Part shown: one piece after another, positions 3,450 to 24,108 of the stretch
How positions within the stretch are numbered: position 1 is the stretch's first letter
Layout: each line of letters begins with the position of its first letter
DNA from: an uncultured virus (IMG/VR IMGVR_UViG_3300025695_000008)
Lineage: Duplodnaviria; Heunggongvirae; Uroviricota; Caudoviricetes
DNA: 64,000 bases
Direction: 5' to 3' (one strand)
IMG/VR virus record: IMGVR_UViG_3300025695_000008
Translations under genes and position numbers: made by a program
Notes under the pieces: generated by a model
The model's input: the letters and a program-made list of their open reading frames with translations, nothing else
The model's database searches: none
What the model was told of the DNA's origin: nothing

Positions 3450-3764
3450 CTACTTAGTGTTATCTTCAATCCAGGTAATAACTTTATCAGCGGTTTTAGC
3501 ACCTAACGTGGTTGCAACCTCTTCACCCCCTTTGATTAATTTAAGTGCGGGTATTGATCTTATACCGTATTCTTTAGCTAAATCACCATGTTCTTCAACA
3601 TTAATTTTACAGAAAGTCACATTATTAATTTCAGTACTCAATTTATCTAAAACTGGTAATAAAACCTTACAGGGGCCACACCAATCGGCGTAGAAATCCA
3701 TAACCACAATGTTGTTATTATTAATAATATCCTCTATTTGTTCTCTATTTTCTATCTTTATCAT
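3450..3764 (-). CDS. trxA: thioredoxin
   Basis: DFYADWCGPCK active site, IRSIP cis-Pro motif. Confidence 0.95.
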   Translation of the reverse strand: MIKIENREQIEDIINNNNIVVMDFYADWCGPCKVLLPVLDKLSTEINNVTFCKINVEEHGDLAKEYGIRSIPALKLIKGGEEVATTLGAKTADKVITWIEDNTK

Positions 3765-3807: not shown

Positions 3808-6033
3808 TTAACTAAATAATTCTACTTCATTCTCTCTATCATTAACAGTTATTAGTTCACATAACGATGTTTGGGTTTTATCCGTTTTTACTGTCGCCAC
3901 ACCTTGATAGAAGGATCTTTTTCTACCAATAACCACACATAATTTTTTAGCTCTAGTTATACCAGTATATAATAAAGATCTATCCGACATGTGTGTGTGC
4001 TCGCTTATTATGGGCATTATGACACAATCAAATTCACTACCTTGTGATTTATGTATGGTTATAGCAAAAGCTAACTCTATTTGGTTTAAATCTTGAGTGG
4101 AGTAATTAACCGCTTTGTTATCATAAGATACCACACAAGTCCTGTCTTTACCATTTATAGATACGATTTTACCTATCTCGCCATTAAAAACTTCTAATTC
4201 GTAATTATTTTTTACGTGTATAACTTTATCATTTAACCTAAACCTTTTACCACTGTTAAGAATTATCTGATTATTTAAATCTGGGTTAATAATATCTTGT
4301 ATCATGGAGTTTATATTATCACACCCAACAACACCAACCCTTTTAGGTATTAATATTTGTATGTCTCGTATAGATCTGTACTTTTTTATCGTATCGGTAT
4401 AGAGTTTTACGATCATCTTTTTTATATCCATATTATAATGTAATGTAGACTCTTTAGGATAATCAGATGATCGTCTACCATCATTTAAATCAGATTCTAG
4501 GAACATAAAATCGGTATCTGAACTCCATATTTCTGGGTTAACTATTGGTGACATTAGGTTTACTGGAGAACCTTTTGATATTGAGTGAGCAGACTTAACT
4601 ATGTCTGAGTTAAGACCTTGTCTAAATATCTTATTAAGTCTATAGGATGGAACCGCACCGCTATTAATCATATCTTTAAATGGGGAACCTGGACCTATTG
4701 GGGGTAATTGCTCGTGATCACCAACGAATAGAACTTGACAATCCTCTGGTATTGAATCTAATAGTGATGCCATGAGTTTAATGTCTATCATTGACGATTC
4801 CTCTACTATAAGATAATCACAATTTATAGGATTGTCGTAATTTCTAGTGAAGTTTTTTGTAACAAAGTCAAATTCTAATAATCTGTGTATGGTCATAGCC
4901 TTATGCCCTATGACTTCACTACTCCTAGCAGCAGCTTTACCCGTTGGGGCACATATAATAACTTCTTTAAATGATTCGGTCAAATTATCAACGATAGTTT
5001 TAGTCGTATATGTTTTACCACAACCTGGTCCACCCGTAAGTATCGATATTTTATTAGATAATGCCCCTATAACGGCTAGTTTTTGCTCTCCACTCAGAGT
5101 CGTATCGTTAACACTTACGTTTTCCACGACATTACTTTGTTGTAGTAACATATCCTTTATTATGTTTACCACACTTTGCTCCGCATTATAAAGTCTTAAA
5201 GAGTAATACCTATCTTCACCACATAGTGTTAATTTAACCACCTTGTCACTCAATAATGCCCTATCAATTAAATCAATATCTTTTTTATTAATTAGGCTCC
5301 ACACCTTATCAACTAATTGTCCTTTAGTTAAATAACAACTACCGTAATTAGTATCGCTCTCTAATATATATTTCAAACACTCTGCATATCTGGTTTCAGA
5401 GTCCTCGTCTAACCCCATTTTTAGAGCTATTTTGTCAGCCATTCTAAAACCAATACCATCTATTTCTTCTATTAGAATATAGGGGTTCTTAGTTATAACC
5501 GCTATGGAATTCTCTCTGTATCTATCATATATTTTTTCTAGATTAACTCCAGTGATACCGTTTTGTTGTAAAAAAACGATTATTTCACTCTTAATCGTAT
5601 TGCTCAACCACACCTCCTTTATACCCTCTAATAAAGTTTTCTTAACACCAGGTACATCAAGTATTATGTCTGGGTTATCTTTTATTTTACCAACGGGATT
5701 GTCACCCAGAAAATCAACTATCTTATTGGCGGTAACTTCACCAATACCCTTAAATAAACCAGATTTTAGGTAAACCTTAAACCCTTTAGATGTGTCAGGT
5801 AATTGTTCTATGGCGAACTTGGCCTTAAATTGTTTACCGTATTTAGAGTTGATGTCAAACTCACCACTAAACTCTGCCATAAACCCCTTTTTTATATTAG
5901 GGTGGTTAACAGATACGACCATGTCTAGACACTTTAACCCATTTTTATCTGAATCATCAATCGAGACGGAACATATATTAAAATCATCACTTTTGTATAT
6001 AACCCTCTTAACTTTACCTATTAATTTATCCAT
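3808..6033 (-). CDS. recD2: RecD2-like SF1B DNA helicase
   Basis: N-terminal OB/HhH region (GIGEVTA, GIGFRMAD), Walker A GGPGCGKT, APTGKAA, VGDHEQLPPIGPG, IFRQ, AITIHKSQGSEF, LLYTGITRAK. Confidence 0.93.
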   Translation of the reverse strand: MDKLIGKVKRVIYKSDDFNICSVSIDDSDKNGLKCLDMVVSVNHPNIKKGFMAEFSGEFDINSKYGKQFKAKFAIEQLPDTSKGFKVYLKSGLFKGIGEVTANKIVDFLGDNPVGKIKDNPDIILDVPGVKKTLLEGIKEVWLSNTIKSEIIVFLQQNGITGVNLEKIYDRYRENSIAVITKNPYILIEEIDGIGFRMADKIALKMGLDEDSETRYAECLKYILESDTNYGSCYLTKGQLVDKVWSLINKKDIDLIDRALLSDKVVKLTLCGEDRYYSLRLYNAEQSVVNIIKDMLLQQSNVVENVSVNDTTLSGEQKLAVIGALSNKISILTGGPGCGKTYTTKTIVDNLTESFKEVIICAPTGKAAARSSEVIGHKAMTIHRLLEFDFVTKNFTRNYDNPINCDYLIVEESSMIDIKLMASLLDSIPEDCQVLFVGDHEQLPPIGPGSPFKDMINSGAVPSYRLNKIFRQGLNSDIVKSAHSISKGSPVNLMSPIVNPEIWSSDTDFMFLESDLNDGRRSSDYPKESTLHYNMDIKKMIVKLYTDTIKKYRSIRDIQILIPKRVGVVGCDNINSMIQDIINPDLNNQIILNSGKRFRLNDKVIHVKNNYELEVFNGEIGKIVSINGKDRTCVVSYDNKAVNYSTQDLNQIELAFAITIHKSQGSEFDCVIMPIISEHTHMSDRSLLYTGITRAKKLCVVIGRKRSFYQGVATVKTDKTQTSLCELITVNDRENEVELFS

Positions 6034-7726: not shown

Positions 7727-7785
7727 GGTAATAAATAGATGGAACTGACATTAAAAATTAAAAAAAAGGGGTTCTTAGTTATTAT

Positions 7786-8166
7786 TTAATCAGTTAAAAG
7801 ACTTTTTGTGTCCTTAACTAACTCATTCTTATTATTTTGATCTAATTGATCAATAGTGCGATATATATCGGCTAGTCCCTGTGATATATTATCCACTGTC
7901 TTATCTACTCTACTATCGATATGGCGATATAATTTATCTCTATCTAAATCTACATTCCTCTGCAACTCAGATATCGAATCATATGTTTCTCGCTCATTGT
8001 CGTTAACTTTAGTTCTCATAATACCAGCTTCGTATAACTGGTTCATTTTAAAATTTTCAAGATCTGCTTTAAGAGACTTGATTTTCATGTTGTTCATAAA
8101 CATACCCACTACCATCAATAACACGATGACAGCACATACACCTAAAATAAATGATGTTAATTCCAT
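7786..8166 (-). CDS. single-pass membrane protein with coiled-coil
   Basis: N-terminal TM helix then helical region; enclosed by 13-bp inverted repeat 7764-7776/8197-8209. Confidence 0.75.
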   Translation of the reverse strand: MELTSFILGVCAVIVLLMVVGMFMNNMKIKSLKADLENFKMNQLYEAGIMRTKVNDNERETYDSISELQRNVDLDRDKLYRHIDSRVDKTVDNISQGLADIYRTIDQLDQNNKNELVKDTKSLLTD

Positions 8167-8188
8167 AATTTTCTATTTTTTTAATGTT

Positions 8189-8202
8189 ATATGTCAAAGA
8201 AC
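8189..8202 (-). promoter_or_regulatory. boxA-like antitermination sequence
   Basis: GTTCTTTGACATAT directly 3' of tRNA-Ser resembles rrn boxA. Confidence 0.45.
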
Positions 8203-8210
8203 CCCTTTTG

Positions 8211-8295
8211 CGGAAGTGGTAGGATTCGAACCTACGGTACCGTTAAGTACGCTTGTTTTCAAGACAAGTCCATTCGACCACTCTGGCACACTTCC
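8211..8295 (-). tRNA. tRNA-Ser(TGA)
   Basis: GGAAGTG/CACTTCC acceptor stem, CTTGT-CT TGA AA-ACAAG anticodon arm, long variable arm, GGTTCGAATCC T arm; no encoded CCA. Confidence 0.95.
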
Positions 8296-8360
8296 TAATT
8301 ATATACCAATAATAGTAAATAGGCCTTATAATAACAAGTATTAATTTAAATTATATCCAT

Positions 8361-8390
8361 AAAAAAACCCACAGACTTTAATCTGTGGGC
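8361..8390 (-). terminator. intrinsic terminator after tmRNA
   Basis: GCCCACAGA-TTAAAG-TCTGTGGGT hairpin followed by T-tract on minus strand. Confidence 0.85.
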
Positions 8391-8392
8391 TT

Positions 8393-8779
8393 TGGTGGAG
8401 GTAACGGGATTCGAACCCATGTCTCGCTTAGTTATTAAATAACCCTCATTCACATGCTTAGTTGATTTTTATAAACCAACAAAATACCCAATTCCCTTTT
8501 TTTAGTGGTTCGGTTTATTGGTAACTAAACTTCCACTCGCTTATAAGATAGCGACACATCCTTTTGCAGTTTTGGGTGACTGTTGTTAATTAAGCTTACG
8601 CTTAAACTAATTCTAGATCTGCAAACTCAACAGGCTGTCCGTCCAACACGATGTTGCCTTCAGCGTCTATGTAGCTTTCGCTATTTATTTGTTCACATAG
8701 GTTATTAAAGTGTTTCCAATGCTAACACTGCATGCATCAAATTAAATAAGTAGCTACCGATCAATACCGATATACCCCC
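8393..8779 (-). ncRNA. ssrA: tmRNA (387 nt)
   Basis: 5' GGGGGTA pairs with 3' TACCTCC-ACCA including the G3:U70 Ala determinant; GGGTTCGAATCCC T arm; GCATG helix-2 motifs at both ends; internal tag ORF 8682-8602. Confidence 0.93.
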
Positions 8780-8793
8780 AAATTAATATAAAT

Positions 8794-8891
8794 AAAATAT
8801 AACCAAATAACCATTCTGGTTCTCGTAAACAGAAATCCCATCTTATTTAACCCTACTGTACGATACGGGTAGTTAAGTTAGGTTATATTTT
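8794..8891 (-). ncRNA. candidate structured ncRNA A (three-way junction, loop-loop pairing)
   Basis: 11-bp terminal stem AAAATATAACC/GGTTATATTTT, two internal hairpins, complementary loop segments TCGTA/TACGA. Confidence 0.55.
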
Positions 8892-8893
8892 TG

Positions 8894-8965
8894 TAGCCCG
8901 TAGGGGAATCGAACCCCTCTTACCAGGATGAAAACCTGGCGTCCTAGCCGATAGACGAACGGGCC
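8894..8965 (-). tRNA. tRNA-Glu(TTC)
   Basis: GGCCCGT/ACGGGCT stem, CCAGG-TT TTC AT-CCTGG, GGTTCGATTCC. Confidence 0.95.
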
Positions 8966-8969
8966 AAAT

Positions 8970-9089
8970 AAAGAGACACTTCGGGTCTTTCAAGGTTTCT
9001 GGTTAATGGTTTGCTTACGCTCGAACTACTCTAAACCCTTTTTCGTTCTTTTAGCACCACCATTAACTACAGCTTCACTGTATCTCTTT
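8970..9089 (-). ncRNA. candidate structured ncRNA B (possible pseudoknot)
   Basis: terminal stem AAAGAGATAC/GTGTCTCTTT, 9-bp inner stem GTTAATGGT/ACCATTAAC, loop GGGTTT complementary to downstream AGACCC. Confidence 0.55.
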
Positions 9090-9166
9090 TGGCGGTCTGG
9101 ACGGGACTCGAACCCGCGACCCCCTGCGTGACAGGCAGGTATTCTAACCAGCTGAACTACCAGACC
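9090..9166 (-). tRNA. tRNA-Asp(GTC)
   Basis: GGTCTGG/CCAGACC stem, CCTGC-CT GTC AC-GCAGG, encoded CCA. Confidence 0.96.
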
Positions 9167-9170
9167 ATAA

Positions 9171-9208
9171 ATAAAACTAAGTACCGAAGTGCTTAATTTT
9201 TTTTTATT
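9171..9208 (-). other. C(UUCG)G hairpin spacer between tRNA-Leu and tRNA-Asp
   Basis: TTAAGCAC-TTCG-GTACTTAG with A/T-rich stem extension. Confidence 0.55.
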
Positions 9209-9209
9209 G

Positions 9210-9293
9210 TACTCGGAGCGGGAATCGAACCCGCACTTCCAGATGGAAACAAGATTTTAAGTCTTGCGCGTCTACCAGTTCCGCCACCCGAGC
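9210..9293 (-). tRNA. tRNA-Leu(TAA)
   Basis: GCTCGGG/TCCGAGT stem, CAAGA-CT TAA AA-TCTTG, variable arm, GGTTCGATTCC. Confidence 0.95.
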
Positions 9294-9406
9294 ATAATTA
9301 ATAATAGAACACGTTTCACATTTTATTGTGTTCCAACTCTACGACCTTAATAGTTGTGAATCTAATTTTAAAGGTTTCCTCGGTGAAGAGTTTATTATTA
9401 ATTACA
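9294..9406 (-). ncRNA. candidate structured ncRNA C (tight three-way junction, loop-loop pairing)
   Basis: 12-bp terminal stem TAATTAATAATA/TATTATTAATTA, P2 AACTCT/AGAGTT, P3 GAACAC/GTGTTC, loop segments TTCACA/TGTGAA complementary. Confidence 0.6.
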
Positions 9407-9510
9407 TAAAAGAACTTTTAGTGATAACCAAATCACAATACAATGTTAATGATTAATACCAAATAAAACAAGATTATTCATCATTTTTTTATAATAATAA
9501 CCATGTCGAG

Positions 9511-9582
9511 TAGCCCCACCAAGAATCGAACTTGGAACTAATCTTTAGAAGAGATTTGTTATATCCATTTAACTACGGGGCC
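9511..9582 (-). tRNA. tRNA-Arg(TCT)
   Basis: GGCCCCG/TGGGGCT stem, AATCT-CT TCT AA-AGATT, AGTTCGATTCT. Confidence 0.93.
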
Positions 9583-9627: not shown

Positions 9628-10485
9628 TTATTTGAAATATTTTTTCATATCTAATCCCATAACTTTCTCTATAACATCTTTAGGAACTTTAAACTCCTCA
9701 AAATCACCATTATCTTTAACCAAAACTATAACACAACCCATCAAACTTAGATTTTCATACTTACTACCTTTTAACATTTTAAGTATTAATCTACCGTAAA
9801 ATGGTAACTGTAGGTAATAGTGACCCAATGCGTTATCTGGGTGTTCCTGGAAAGGTTTCTTCATCTGTTTGGTCCATTTATTAACACGCATGTTTTTCTC
9901 TTTATTGGTTTTCCAATCAGTTATAACCATACCAAAACCCGTATTCTCTTTATTCATGATCAACCAAACTTTGTCAGGCTGACCTGTATACCCTAATTCT
10001 GGATCACCTAATACCATTTCAGTATCTAATAGTATAGCACCTCTTTTGTTCATTAAATCTAAGAATTTCTCTCCAGCCTCAACCATTGAGTTAGACTTCA
10101 TAGTTTGTTGTGTGTCTACTACAAATATGGGTTCCCTAACGCTTTTATAATTCCCATTAGATTCTATTAATTTTTTCTCTAAAATATAATGTACTCTAGA
10201 CCCCATATTGGTAGCGTATTCACCAGCGGCCTTCCATTCGTTTAATAATTCTTGTTGTACAGCTAAATCACCTTTAGCTTTTCTTAGTGATATTTCTTGG
10301 GCTGGGAATTCTGTATAGAAGTGTTTTAATACCTTTGATACAGATGGCCAGTCACTTCTTACGTCACCCTTATCATCTTTCATGAAATAGGTGTGGGTAT
10401 CTTCTATGAAGCTTAGGTTTAACTCCTTTTTTTTATCTTCAAATATTTCTCTTATCTCTTTTGATACTTGTTTTAAATCTACCAT
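9628..10485 (-). CDS. PD-(D/E)xK superfamily exonuclease
   Basis: SVSKVL, GSRVHYILE, TGQPD, ITDWKTN, YYLQLPFY motifs. Confidence 0.85.
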   Translation of the reverse strand: MVDLKQVSKEIREIFEDKKKELNLSFIEDTHTYFMKDDKGDVRSDWPSVSKVLKHFYTEFPAQEISLRKAKGDLAVQQELLNEWKAAGEYATNMGSRVHYILEKKLIESNGNYKSVREPIFVVDTQQTMKSNSMVEAGEKFLDLMNKRGAILLDTEMVLGDPELGYTGQPDKVWLIMNKENTGFGMVITDWKTNKEKNMRVNKWTKQMKKPFQEHPDNALGHYYLQLPFYGRLILKMLKGSKYENLSLMGCVIVLVKDNGDFEEFKVPKDVIEKVMGLDMKKYFK

Positions 10486-10523
10486 AATTTTATTTTTTAT
10501 TTTTTATCTATCACCTGATTATG

Positions 10524-10531
10524 CAAATATA
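10524..10531 (-). promoter_or_regulatory. Bacteroidota-type -7 element
   Basis: TATATTTG 38 nt upstream of ATG 10485. Confidence 0.55.
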
Positions 10532-10594
10532 ACATTTATTTACTTAACACGTAATATATTTACATTTTTATTTTTAACCCTACCTTTAATGTAT

Positions 10595-10906
10595 ATGAGC
10601 AGAATATATTTACTAGCTAACGATGAGTGGACTCAATTTAAGATTGGGATAACAAAAAAAACCACTTCTGAAAGAATTAAAGGTTTACAAACAGGCAATG
10701 GATCTGAAATTACTGTAATAAAGGAGTATAAGACTAATAACGCTAGGAGAATAGAATCTTACTTACACAGACTATACAAAAGTAAAAGGTTAGTGGGTGA
10801 GTGGTTCGATTTAGATGATGATGATATTAATAACTTCATTGATGTATGTATTAATATTGAAACATCGATCAATTACCTTAAAGAACATAACCCATTCTAC
10901 AAATAA
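10595..10906 (+). CDS. GIY-YIG-like T5orf172/MUG113 family protein (start probably 10595 or 10589, not 10391)
   Basis: IYLL...FKIGIT...ERIKGLQTGN...IESYLH...GEWF motif. Confidence 0.85.
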   Translation: MSRIYLLANDEWTQFKIGITKKTTSERIKGLQTGNGSEITVIKEYKTNNARRIESYLHRLYKSKRLVGEWFDLDDDDINNFIDVCINIETSINYLKEHNPFYK

Positions 10907-20904: not shown

Positions 20905-23900
20905 TTAGAAACTAAACACTATGTATACGTGAGTCTCTTTAGCGGTAGGAAAACCTACTCTATCCCAGTCAAAATTACCTTTAGCCATATCTATCCCAAT
21001 AGTAAAGATGCTACCAAAATCTGTGAATAAATTAGCGTCAAATTGATTTGGTAAACCGCTCGGGCTCGTAAAACTGCTGAAGTTAAAGCCAGTTAGTTTA
21101 TAGTTTGTATTAGTACCACCACCGTCTAAGTGTGTTACTATGTACTCGTTAGTTGAGGTGTTAGCCGCATAAGCCAATATTGAGCGCGGCGGGTTAACCT
21201 CCTGGGCAAATTGGAATTCGGCATTCATGTCAGTATTAGCGGCTGATGCACCAGCAGTGGCTATATCGGAGTTACCGAATTGATCGAAGAACACAGCTAC
21301 TATCTGCTGTGTGGCATCGAATTCTACTCTAGCGATATACGTGTTGGTCCCAGACCCACTTACACCAGATGTACCTGCTACTCCTGATATTCCTGATGTA
21401 CCATCATTACCATCATTTCCATCTAATCCTGATATTCCTGATGTACCATCGTTACCATCATTTCCGTTATTTCCATCAACACCATTTATTCCTGATGTAC
21501 CATCGTTACCATCATTTCCATCTACTCCAGATATTCCTGATGTACCATCGTTTCCATCGTTACCATCATTTCCATCTACTCCTGATATTCCTGATGTACC
21601 ATCGTTTCCGTTATTCCCATCAATACCATTTATTCCTGATGTACCGTTCTCGCCATTTGCACCGACCTTAGTATAAGAGATTCCGAATGAATTGTAAAGT
21701 GAGTTCGATCCGTTTGCTGCAATAACTGTTACGTTGAATGTAACGTTAGTGCCGTTATCTGTTTTACCAGTTACTTCATATATACCGAATTCTGATGTAT
21801 TTGTAGTTTTGTATAGTGAAATAATATCACCTACTTCGATTCCAGCTAACCAATTCTGCGCATTGATAGAATTAATAGCTGTTTCGTTAATAGTTATTGT
21901 AGTTACTGATGCATTAGTGCTGGATGACATACTAAAGAACTCAGCATTTATAGAAGGTCCGATTGACCATCTTAGAGTGTTAGCACCATCAACACCATCA
22001 TTGCCATCGTTTCCATCTACTCCTGATATTCCAGACGTACCATCATTTCCATCTATACCATCGTTTCCGTCAATACCATCATTCCCATCGTTTCCGTCTA
22101 TTCCTGATATTCCAGACGTACCATCAATACCATCATTCCCATCGTTTCCGTCAATACCATCATTACCATCGTTTCCAGATATCCCTGATGTACCATCATT
22201 ACCGTCATTACCATCATTTCCATCTACTCCAGATATCCCTGATGTACCATCATTACCGTCATTACCATCATTTCCATCTACTCCAGATATCCCTGATGTA
22301 CCATCATTACCATCATTACCATCTACTCCAGATATCCCTGATGTACCATCGTTTCCATCTATTCCTGATGTACCATCAGCACCATCGTTTCCGTCTATAC
22401 CATCTACTCCAGATATCCCTGATGTACCATCGTTTCCATCTATTCCTGATGTACCATCAGCACCATCGTTTCCGTCTATACCATCTACTCCAGATATCCC
22501 TGATGTACCATCGTTTCCATCATTTCCATCAATACCATCGTTTCCATCTACTCCAGATATCCCTGATGTACCATCAGCACCATCATTTCCATCAATACCA
22601 TCAATACCATCGTTTCCATCTACTCCAGATATTCCTGATGTACCATCAATACCATCATTTCCATCTACTCCAGATATTCCTGATGTACCATCAATACCAT
22701 CGTTCCCATCATTTCCATCAATACCATTTATTCCAGACGTACCATCATTTCCATCTATTCCAGATATTCCAGACGTACCATCATTTCCATCTATTCCAGA
22801 TATTCCAGACGTACCATCATTTCCATCTATTCCAGATATTCCAGACGTACCATCAGCACCATCAGCACCATCTATTCCAGATATCCCTGATGTACCATCG
22901 TTTCCGTCAATACCATCGTTTCCATCTACTCCTGATATTCCTGATGTACCATCTGCTCCAGATATCCCTGATGTACCATCAGCACCATCATTACCATCAA
23001 TACCATTAATACCATCAATACCATCACCACCAGTTGCTCCATCTAGGTTAACTGTCCATGATGTATATGTCCCGCCACCAACAGTTCTTGTTGGAGCTCC
23101 GAACACCAATTCACCTGTTATTGAATTATATGTTATAACCTCACATTCTTGGAAGTTAGCTGTGTCGTATACAATTATAATTGACTGGGCTGGGGTATAT
23201 GCTAGATCGGGGTCGACAAATAACGTACCGCTACTGCCTAGGATTAGTGAAGTTACTGATATCGTCTTATATTTGTCCCCATCAGCACCATCAGCACCAT
23301 TTATTCCAGATGTACCGTCAGCACCATTTATCCCTGATGTACCATCAGCACCATCGTTACCATCAGCACCATTTATTCCAGATGTACCGTCAGCACCATT
23401 TATCCCTGATGTACCATCAGTACCATCAGCACCATTTATTCCAGATGTACCGTCAGCACCATTTATCCCTGATGTACCATCAGTACCATCAGCACCATCA
23501 GCACCATCGTTACCATCAGCACCATTTATTCCAGATGTACCATCAGCACCATCGTTACCATCGTTACCATCAGCACCATTTATCCCTGATGTACCATCAG
23601 CACCATCGTTACCATCATTTCCATCTACTCCTGATATCCCTGATGTACCATCAGCACCATCGTTACCATCATTTCCATCTACTCCTGATATCCCTGATGT
23701 ACCATTAGAACCAGAGGATAGTGAACTTAGATCTATGTTAACCAAATCACCACCAGAAGTTGTGAATATTAAGTTTGATGTATTCTCGTTGAAGCTAGCT
23801 CCCACAAATTCGTCACCCGTTGATGAACCTCCACCGCCAGCTACTTTTCTCCATAGCCTAATGTCGGAACCGTTTATTTTAACTACTTCAGAAAAAGTGT

Positions 23901-24108
23901 TGTTTGAACTACTGTAGCTAAACTCTGTGTGTGATTCTATACAAACATAAAGTGATGTTGTACCATTATCGCTTATTATATAAGTGAATTGACCTGATTT
24001 AAAGTCTTGGGGTATCCATTTTATTATCTCTAACGTCTTTAAATTATCGTCTAGCTCGTTATGTGTTAATGGTCTGGATAGGTTTGACCTGAGTATTAAA
24101 TTTGACAT
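20905..24108 (-). CDS. collagen-like (Gly-X-Y) fibre protein
   Basis: N-terminal RPLTHNELDDN attachment-type motif; three G-X-Y blocks separated by globular inserts. Confidence 0.85.
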   Translation of the reverse strand: MSNLILRSNLSRPLTHNELDDNLKTLEIIKWIPQDFKSGQFTYIISDNGTTSLYVCIESHTEFSYSSSNNTFSEVVKINGSDIRLWRKVAGGGGSSTGDEFVGASFNENTSNLIFTTSGGDLVNIDLSSLSSGSNGTSGISGVDGNDGNDGADGTSGISGVDGNDGNDGADGTSGINGADGNDGNDGADGTSGINGADGNDGADGADGTDGTSGINGADGTSGINGADGTDGTSGINGADGTSGINGADGNDGADGTSGINGADGTSGINGADGADGDKYKTISVTSLILGSSGTLFVDPDLAYTPAQSIIIVYDTANFQECEVITYNSITGELVFGAPTRTVGGGTYTSWTVNLDGATGGDGIDGINGIDGNDGADGTSGISGADGTSGISGVDGNDGIDGNDGTSGISGIDGADGADGTSGISGIDGNDGTSGISGIDGNDGTSGISGIDGNDGTSGINGIDGNDGNDGIDGTSGISGVDGNDGIDGTSGISGVDGNDGIDGIDGNDGADGTSGISGVDGNDGIDGNDGNDGTSGISGVDGIDGNDGADGTSGIDGNDGTSGISGVDGIDGNDGADGTSGIDGNDGTSGISGVDGNDGNDGTSGISGVDGNDGNDGNDGTSGISGVDGNDGNDGNDGTSGISGNDGNDGIDGNDGNDGIDGTSGISGIDGNDGNDGIDGNDGIDGNDGTSGISGVDGNDGNDGVDGANTLRWSIGPSINAEFFSMSSSTNASVTTITINETAINSINAQNWLAGIEVGDIISLYKTTNTSEFGIYEVTGKTDNGTNVTFNVTVIAANGSNSLYNSFGISYTKVGANGENGTSGINGIDGNNGNDGTSGISGVDGNDGNDGNDGTSGISGVDGNDGNDGTSGINGVDGNNGNDGNDGTSGISGLDGNDGNDGTSGISGVAGTSGVSGSGTNTYIARVEFDATQQIVAVFFDQFGNSDIATAGASAANTDMNAEFQFAQEVNPPRSILAYAANTSTNEYIVTHLDGGGTNTNYKLTGFNFSSFTSPSGLPNQFDANLFTDFGSIFTIGIDMAKGNFDWDRVGFPTAKETHVYIVFSF
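21350..23703 (-). repeat. 9-bp-unit coding tandem repeats (GTS/GIS/GVD/GND/GAD/GID triplets)
   Basis: three blocks at about 21350-21665, 21982-23040 and 23281-23703. Confidence 0.95.

Follow-up and report, generated by a model that had tools for sequence, protein, structure and literature searches.

Three conserved, stem-closed spacers in the tRNA/tmRNA operon of a large marine phage are candidate genes for trans-acting RNAs

We analysed a transfer RNA (tRNA) and transfer-messenger RNA (tmRNA) gene island located on the minus strand, at 9582–7764, of a 64,000-nucleotide (nt) stretch of DNA from an uncultured virus of the Caudoviricetes (IMG/VR record IMGVR_UViG_3300025695_000008); this whole stretch is referred to below as the window. 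From the sequence alone, it had been proposed that the tRNAs of this island act as punctuation and release a series of RNAs with paired ends (the original prediction). Our analysis makes it rather likely that three inter-gene spacers of this operon, which belongs to a large marine phage, are RNA genes, whose products would be released by tRNA processing and might act in trans. Judged by comparative sequence evidence, each of the three spacers is a conserved, separately folded RNA of ~100–120 nt. In all three, a terminal helix pairs the first with the last bases and is placed 0–2 nt after a tRNA and/or a few nt before the next gene, and homologues of all three are present, with compensatory changes, in another viral contig (L291). 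In this respect the original prediction is supported, and the spacers are more than filler.

Every terminal helix that had been named at a tRNA boundary is present in its place. In the spacer between tRNA-Asp and tRNA-Glu, which holds the RNA that we call family 1 (8970–9089, minus strand, as for all island features given here), positions 9089–9080 pair with 8979–8970 over 10 base pairs (bp), with no nucleotide between the helix and tRNA-Asp and 4 nt between it and tRNA-Glu. Element 2 (8794–8891), a stem-closed RNA of 98 nt, is closed by an 11-bp helix (8891–8881 with 8804–8794), which begins 1 nt past tRNA-Glu and leaves 14 nt up to the tmRNA. Element 3 (9294–9406), a third stem-closed RNA of ~113 nt, has a helix of 12–13 bp (9404–9393 with 9306–9295) and its 3′ end lies 1 nt before tRNA-Leu. 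An equal or longer terminal helix was seen in the minimum free energy fold of 1/300 dinucleotide shuffles for the Asp–Glu spacer, 0/300 for element 2 and 1/300 for element 3, and among 385 natural segments drawn at random from the window there was no terminal helix of 10 bp or more. The full 216-nt spacer between tRNA-Arg and tRNA-Leu has no end-to-end helix and element 3 is anchored at the tRNA-Leu side only, so that its 5′ boundary was chosen post hoc.

Copies of family 1 were gathered by exact-word scans of IMG/VR (L076 and L078) and of metagenomes (15 of 63 loci), with L291 added later, and comprise 14 distinct sequences on marine contigs. The structure obtained with RNAalifold and a pair count consists of the closing helix P1 (9089–9080/8979–8970), a long P2/P2b, a hairpin P3 and a pseudoknot in which the P3 loop pairs with the 3′ tail. 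With the pseudoknot included, 93.6% of the cells are paired and 19 of the 37 pairs are compensatory, values that 0/500 shuffles equalled, and slid controls of the same alignment gave 3–4 pairs; the homologues thus have the conserved and covarying internal structure that a functional RNA in this position was expected to have. The unpaired blocks are invariant. The alignment also contains 26 G–U cells, which would be A–C mismatches on the opposite strand and hence fit the minus strand only, making this the RNA strand of family 1. Reading frames and stop codons vary between the aligned copies, from which we take family 1 to be noncoding; a micro-open reading frame (ORF) within it was considered and rejected, as its frames are not conserved. 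The copy in L291, which was found via a different spacer, has 5 of the 9 P2 pairs swapped with the helix kept, and R1, a model built without L291, still scores it at 92 bits.

The position of family 1 relative to tRNAs is similar in most copies, while the tRNAs themselves differ. Nine of the 14 copies lie 0–9 nt past an upstream tRNA, and in eight a gap of 4–5 nt separates the copy from a downstream tRNA. The tRNAs on either side are Asp/Glu, Lys/Thr, Tyr/Arg, Leu/Arg or, upstream, Asn. Five copies (L078, L215, L219, L226 and L291) are without a tRNA directly upstream, and no tRNA is present anywhere in the 1-kilobase (kb) loci L215 and L226. The ~100-nt interior is 88–97% identical while the sequence of the closing helix changes. 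When contigs of four marine sequencing runs were compared with the island, many short ones matched exactly the span 8980–9079, which is the interior between the helix arms, with 2–20 differences, and continued into unrelated sequence outside. Since the same contig ends at 9079/9080 occur in a DNA run, these ends reflect assembly branching and not RNA ends.

Elements 2 and 3 were compared with their homologues in L291. Element 2 differs at 6 of its 98 nt; four of these differences make two compensatory pairs and one changes C–G to U–G. Its interior is 94% identical in L291, the adjoining flank is unrelated and an ORF is found there in place of the tmRNA. Element 3 contains a 12-bp perfect inverted repeat, and in L291 its closing helix, inner helix and hairpin are kept, with 5 of 26 pairs compensatory.

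It had been anticipated that scanners would miss these RNAs. In Rfam 15, searched at the gathering scores and at E-values up to 10, the three spacers fall outside every family, the weak sX4, YrlA and plastid motifs that were reported overlapping tRNAs and being far below threshold, and the tRNA scan misses them as well; Rfam, which the original prediction had suggested for this purpose, did match the tmRNA. Copies of family 1 in nine other loci were likewise without an Rfam match. Hammerhead, twister and hepatitis delta virus (HDV) folds were considered for family 1 and rejected by eye and by Rfam. Further searches for relatives were largely negative. The whole island compared with the phage collection gave matches to the tRNAs only, and a search for relatives via a flanking 285-amino-acid (aa) exonuclease-like protein led to one locus, which is without tRNAs. 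A 14-mer word was found in at least 119 loci, of which 80 were compared by blastn and none matched; of 17 word matches in bacterial and archaeal genome representatives none fitted R1, and R1 gave one noise match only in four Bacteroidota genomes. The family-1 word is absent from six supplementary files of PMC10690425, the 10,006 candidates of which may still include the element.

The original prediction had also called for tRNA spacers from other phages to be collected, and for this purpose 68 IMG/VR tRNA arrays were gathered by a tRNA-Glu word only. Considering same-strand spacers of 60–250 nt and counting as stem-closed those with a terminal helix of at least 7 bp, 17 of the 58 distinct spacers are stem-closed, compared with 5 of 290 mononucleotide shuffles. 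The helices start 0–2 nt past the upstream tRNA in 16 of these 17 spacers and end 2–7 nt before the next tRNA in 15. A stem-closed spacer layout is thus general in phage tRNA arrays. Neither R1 nor blastn detected homology between these 68 arrays and the island spacers. Further recurrent spacer families are visible in the arrays, likewise without an Rfam match. One is an inter-tRNA RNA of ~145 nt (L010:1912–2059, L032:3200–3344 and L046:2357–2499; minus strand), with the closing helix AAGATAATG/CATTATCTT and the conserved blocks GTCGACAA and AAGATTGGAGCGAGA.GGGTA.TCCA; the tRNA pairs on either side of it differ, and Rfam has no match for it. Another recurrent stem-closed spacer, of ~159 nt, lies between tRNA-Ala and tRNA-Asp (L007:2880–3038 and L027:2881–3038). 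The spacers at ~3487–3620 of these same two loci contain two T-arm-like GGTTCGAGTCC motifs and are tRNA-like in this respect, and a region adjoining tRNA-Asp in L046 (2150–2264, minus strand) gave a sub-threshold match to YrlA, a Y RNA-like family (36.6 bits, the gathering score being 69).

In mitochondria, the RNAs that lie between tRNAs are set free when RNase P and RNase Z cut at the tRNAs, and in bacteria tRNAs without an encoded CCA go with RNase Z-type 3′ processing. A similar route can be proposed for the island, with the difference that the predicted pieces are small non-coding phage RNAs. The whole row of tRNAs, spacers and tmRNA would be transcribed as one precursor per block, as suggested by the strand that they share, the short distances between them and the presence of one terminator-like hairpin only. 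RNase P would cut at every tRNA and tmRNA 5′ end, which fits the fixed single-stranded gap of 4–5 nt, suited to a short leader, and an RNase Z-type 3′ tRNA endonuclease would cut after the discriminator base, as judged from the four of five tRNAs that are without an encoded CCA. Together these cuts would free the spacers as discrete RNAs, the paired ends of which would resist exonucleases, by the same route as the RNAC and RNAD molecules of phage T4. Punctuation by tRNAs is plausible for the three RNAs, but it does not apply to an mRNA cassette of the island that had been included in the same scheme and is discussed below. Our guess is that the released RNAs probably act in trans by binding a protein or the ribosome, and the invariant unpaired blocks together with the pseudoknot suggest that family 1 has a specific partner. 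The roles of decoy, protein sponge or ribozyme that had been proposed are likewise guesses.

The closest precedent appears to be T4 RNAC and RNAD, and by analogy the island RNAs would be T4-type small stable RNAs in kind. The T4 molecules (species 1 and 2) are 119 and 139 nt long and are described as having no known role (PMC3014915). In T4, tRNA-Arg is followed at 1 nt by rnaD, which in turn is followed at 6 nt by rnaC; like them, the island RNAs share the strand of the tRNAs and lie within a phage tRNA cluster or adjoin it. Furthermore, a GIY-YIG-type endonuclease gene is found in or near both clusters, namely the homing endonuclease gene segB in T4 and, here, an ORF with T5orf172/MUG113 (GIY-YIG-type) domains, which is located on the opposite (plus) strand at 10391–10906 of the window, 0.8 kb upstream of the island. 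However, there is no homology to rnaC or rnaD in sequence or structure, and R1 finds nothing in T4 68000–75000. In addition, rnaC has a tRNA-like T arm, which the island elements do not have, and the T4 RNAs are at the cluster end whereas the island RNAs lie between tRNAs. Our search of the literature on RNAs between phage tRNAs returned only the T4 remark and work on theta ribozymes. The RNA families, the link to tmRNA described next and the frequency of the layout across arrays are absent from the literature that was searched; T4-type small stable RNAs are already known as a kind.

When 50,697 phage records were searched by blastn for family 1, Cellulophaga phage phi14:2 alone gave a match (E 6e-4), with 76.5% identity over 67 nt. 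The match falls within a tmRNA (at 4031–4500 of that phage) and starts right after the stop codon of the tag. This tmRNA is called by ARAGORN with the tag GSSVQKLAMVA followed by a stop, and its Rfam score of 46 bits is just below the gathering score of 47. With filters off, R1 scores the phi14:2 tmRNA at 25.5 bits (E 2.7e-5), and two pseudoknot pairs are compensatory in the resulting alignment (U–A to A–U and G–C to A–U). The hairpin, with its A-rich, G/U-containing loop, and the 3′ block, CCAG.AACCYYGAAAGACCCGAA, are nearly identical in the two RNAs, which also share the loop-to-tail pseudoknot to which the two compensatory pairs belong. On this sequence evidence, the family-1 core is homologous to the module in the helix-5/PK2 position (placed by position) that follows the tag in the phi14:2 tmRNA, and through this homology family 1 has one feature of tmRNA (RF00023), the pseudoknot module following the tag. 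In other respects it differs: family 1 has neither a tRNA-like domain nor a T arm and gives no tRNA or tmRNA match at E-values up to 10, a tag reading frame is not conserved among its copies, and family 1 has a closing helix of its own (P1).

We looked for this module elsewhere. It is absent from the tmRNA of the window when searched with R1 with filters off, and its motif is no commoner in 301 Flavobacteriaceae genomes than a reversed control. A separate scan with a tmRNA 5′ word gave 0 matches. Family 1 may be a piece of tmRNA that became free-standing, or an element that inserted into tmRNA, and descent may have run in either direction. Two abundant and unusually stable intergenic RNAs early in the genome of phi14:2 are reported in a preprint (bioRxiv 10.1101/2020.03.07.982082). 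In the GenBank record of phi14:2, two small hypothetical ORFs, gp013 and gp014, are annotated antisense over the tmRNA found by ARAGORN and Rfam (L297:3475–3781, record positions 4213–4519).

Several points weigh against the view that the three spacers are RNA genes released by tRNA processing and acting in trans. As 13 copies of family 1 were collected via an exact word inside P2, the invariance of P2 in these copies is partly by construction. The five of 14 copies without an adjacent upstream tRNA mean that tRNA punctuation is not the sole release route. Elements 2 and 3 have one homologue each (L291) and none further in the phage collection or in one word scan each, the scan for element 3 giving 1 chance match, and the interior of element 2 has an unremarkable fold (z −0.92). 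A promoter scan listed 9 sites compared with 10.1 in shuffles. Finally, although the RNA-library contigs X13 and X20 contain family 1 and the tmRNA, such contigs reveal neither RNA ends nor expression level, and DNA-run contigs break alike.

An alternative that we regard as unlikely is that the spacers are cis-acting insulators only, which by folding on themselves prevent tRNA mispairing and give nucleases clean single-stranded junctions, and are then waste. This would be in agreement with the abundance (17/58) and the very diverse sequences of stem-closed spacers across phage arrays, with the tightly fixed gap of 4–5 nt to the next tRNA and with the interior of element 2, which folds no better than shuffles. 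However, an insulator needs the helix alone, and in family 1 it is the interior that is conserved (88–97%) despite differing tRNAs, while the closing helix varies. Neither the invariant unpaired blocks nor the covarying pseudoknot of family 1 would be required, and 5 of the 14 copies have no adjoining upstream tRNA to insulate, with L215 and L226 having no tRNA in their 1-kb loci at all. The interior of element 2, for its part, is 94% identical in L291, where the sequence beyond it is unrelated.

It is improbable that the elements are decaying leftovers of tmRNA or tRNA genes, or small mobile DNA with terminal inverted repeats, and have no RNA function. The resemblance of the family-1 core to part of a tmRNA is compatible with such an origin, as is the occurrence of the same element between different tRNA pairs with up to 97% identity, and a gene of the T5orf172/GIY-YIG type is located nearby (10391–10906). 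The contigs G002, G008 and G009 share nothing else detectable with the window, which could likewise point to mobility; this lack of other similarity means little, since these contigs are 7–13% fragments of large genomes. Against this explanation, the compensatory changes and the G–U pairs that fit one strand point to selection on the RNA fold, the terminal repeats vary around a conserved interior, the reverse of what transposase-bound ends show, and no transposase is present.

Small structured RNAs at phage tRNA 3′ ends, in a proposed tRNA-processing context, have a precedent in the HDV-like theta ribozymes of gut phages (PMC10879173); the phages here are marine, the topology differs and cleavage by family 1 would be hypothetical. 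That family 1 is a self-cleaving ribozyme of this sort, trimming the neighbouring tRNA, is very improbable: most of its tRNA-flanked copies do begin 0–2 nt past the tRNA 3′ end and it has invariant unpaired nucleotides and a pseudoknot, but it matches no Rfam ribozyme family at E-values up to 10 nor in the nine other loci, its 5′-most strand pairs with the 3′ end and not with an internal strand, so that the nested double pseudoknot of HDV-like folds (5′-most strand internal, second strand to the 3′ end) is not found, and the tRNA is 9 nt away in L076 and missing from that position in five copies.

The mRNA cassette mentioned above is located at the 3′ end of the island. As had been predicted, a perfect 13-bp helix (8209–8197 with 7776–7764) encloses a whole ORF at 8166–7786. 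Its 5′ arm (8197–8209, AAAAGGGGTTCTT) begins 1 nt after tRNA-Ser, that is directly after it, and its 3′ arm (7764–7776, AAGAACCCCTTTT) lies 9 nt past the stop codon and continues into a T run. It is the longest perfect helix between upstream and downstream sequences among 63 ORFs of the window, the others having 10 bp or fewer, and ranks 5th of 63 by duplex energy. The ORF has homologues in L003, L004, L005 and L280–L283, and the pairing is kept, at 13–20 bp and with differing outer sequence, in four sequence variants. In L282 the arms are AAGTGAGTTCTTT and AAAGAACTCACTT, directly after a tRNA; in L003 the helix has 17 bp, includes wobbles and a bulge, and is separated by 75 nt from the preceding tRNA-Thr; and in L005 the arms ACTGTAAGGTAAGTTCTTT and AAAGAACTTACCCTTACAGT follow a terminator, with no tRNA. 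Since the pairing is kept across the variants, and also without an adjacent tRNA, the helix belongs to the ORF cassette, and tRNA punctuation is not the explanation for the stem-closed mRNA, given that the helix is present without an adjacent tRNA in L005 and L003.

Bacterial rRNAs are flanked by long-range helices that are cut by RNase III. The ORF helix resembles these in that its two strands come from either side of the RNA and in being a helix of 13–20 bp kept during evolution in four variants; it differs in that its 3′ arm enters a T run like a terminator. By analogy, we tentatively prefer for it a role in processing or stability, comparable to that of an RNase III site, a possibility on which we would not insist. 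A split terminator is a more doubtful proposal: the arms of the window and of L282 end in ...CCCC or ...CAC and then 8 T, L003 and L005 have a weaker run of T, and the loop is ~420 nt and contains the whole ORF instead of being short. Either a DNA-level repeat of a mobile cassette or something else again would be unlikely, to the same degree. The conserved TTGACA next to the helix was considered as a promoter element and rejected, as its distance to the ATG varies between 13 and 30 nt and it is part of the covarying helix. A second inverted repeat of 21 nt, 86% complementary (7746–7766/8176–8196), is located just inside and outside the arms; it crosses the ORF helix, so that both cannot form as nested helices.

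The protein encoded by the ORF (7786–8166) has 126 aa, in which a hydrophobic N-terminal segment precedes a charged helical region. It matched no PHROG, no Pfam family above threshold and unnamed Atlas clusters only. The ORF and its homologues (8167–8196 in the window; L003, L005 and L282) have A-rich leaders without a Shine–Dalgarno sequence, a trait that, taken with the link to phi14:2, may hint at a host among the Bacteroidota.

The remaining features of the island are as follows, in the order of transcription. Five tRNAs (Arg, Leu, Asp, Glu and Ser) were called by ARAGORN, and an encoded CCA is missing in four of them. The first gene is tRNA-Arg (TCT; 9510–9582; ARAGORN and Rfam, 62.7 bits), in which CCA is not encoded. 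The 5′ half of the Arg–Leu spacer (9407–9509) has two local hairpins (fold z −2.77) and no homologue in L291 or the phage collection. Element 3 is followed by tRNA-Leu (TAA; 9209–9293; ARAGORN and Rfam), and the 42-nt spacer between it and tRNA-Asp contains the UUCG-capped hairpin that had been predicted after tRNA-Leu (9173–9200; fold −6.8 kcal/mol, z −3.03). tRNA-Asp (GTC; 9090–9166) encodes CCA, as established by ARAGORN, Rfam and the sequence, and tRNA-Glu (TTC; 8893–8965; ARAGORN and Rfam) separates family 1 from element 2. The tmRNA, whose presence in the island had been predicted correctly, ends in CCA (8393–8779) and is full-length by Rfam (RF00023, 61.5 bits with a gathering score of 47, model positions 1–374), yet it is absent from the ARAGORN list, and inspection by eye gave no convincing tag reading frame. 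Read directly from the sequence, a hairpin, GCCCACAG/CUGUGGGU, and then a U run follow at 8361–8390, which is probably the end of the first transcription unit; this hairpin is not among the sites listed by a consensus terminator scan, and in the promoter and terminator scan of the window the number of sites was no greater than in shuffles. The second block begins with tRNA-Ser (TGA; 8210–8295; ARAGORN and Rfam).

The surrounding phage genes encode an exonuclease V/Dda-type helicase, a T5 A1-like DNA transfer protein, a collagen-like tail fibre and a head protease. Window positions 23635–58741 are the same DNA as the virus record G001, for which a completeness of 12% is given at 35 kb, so that the genome could plausibly measure close to 300 kb. 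The sequencing runs that contain the stretch are marine. The collagen-like tail-fibre ORF (1067 aa; 20905–24108, minus strand) is internally repetitive at the DNA level, and the first 79 nt of G001 match ~20 places at 21388–23659 of the window.

A single marine phage has three unrelated, conserved, stem-closed RNAs between its tRNAs, and the layout recurs in the arrays of other phages. The small RNAs of the T4 tRNA cluster have been without a known role for decades, and this locus indicates that such RNAs are not an oddity of T4; at present, annotation pipelines overlook all of them. The link between family 1 and the tmRNA module provides the first testable clue to an origin and a partner, and the cultured Cellulophaga phage phi14:2 offers a related module. 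A broader proposal, which we advance only as a speculation and consider unlikely to hold in full, is that phage tRNA arrays are an expression platform for small structured RNAs and that family 1 is a free-standing descendant of the post-tag part of tmRNA, acting in trans or as a decoy. If this were true, family 1 would act on the partner that the module meets in tmRNA, be it the ribosome or a tmRNA-binding factor, or, alternatively, would be a decoy that engages some host system directed against phage tRNA or tmRNA.

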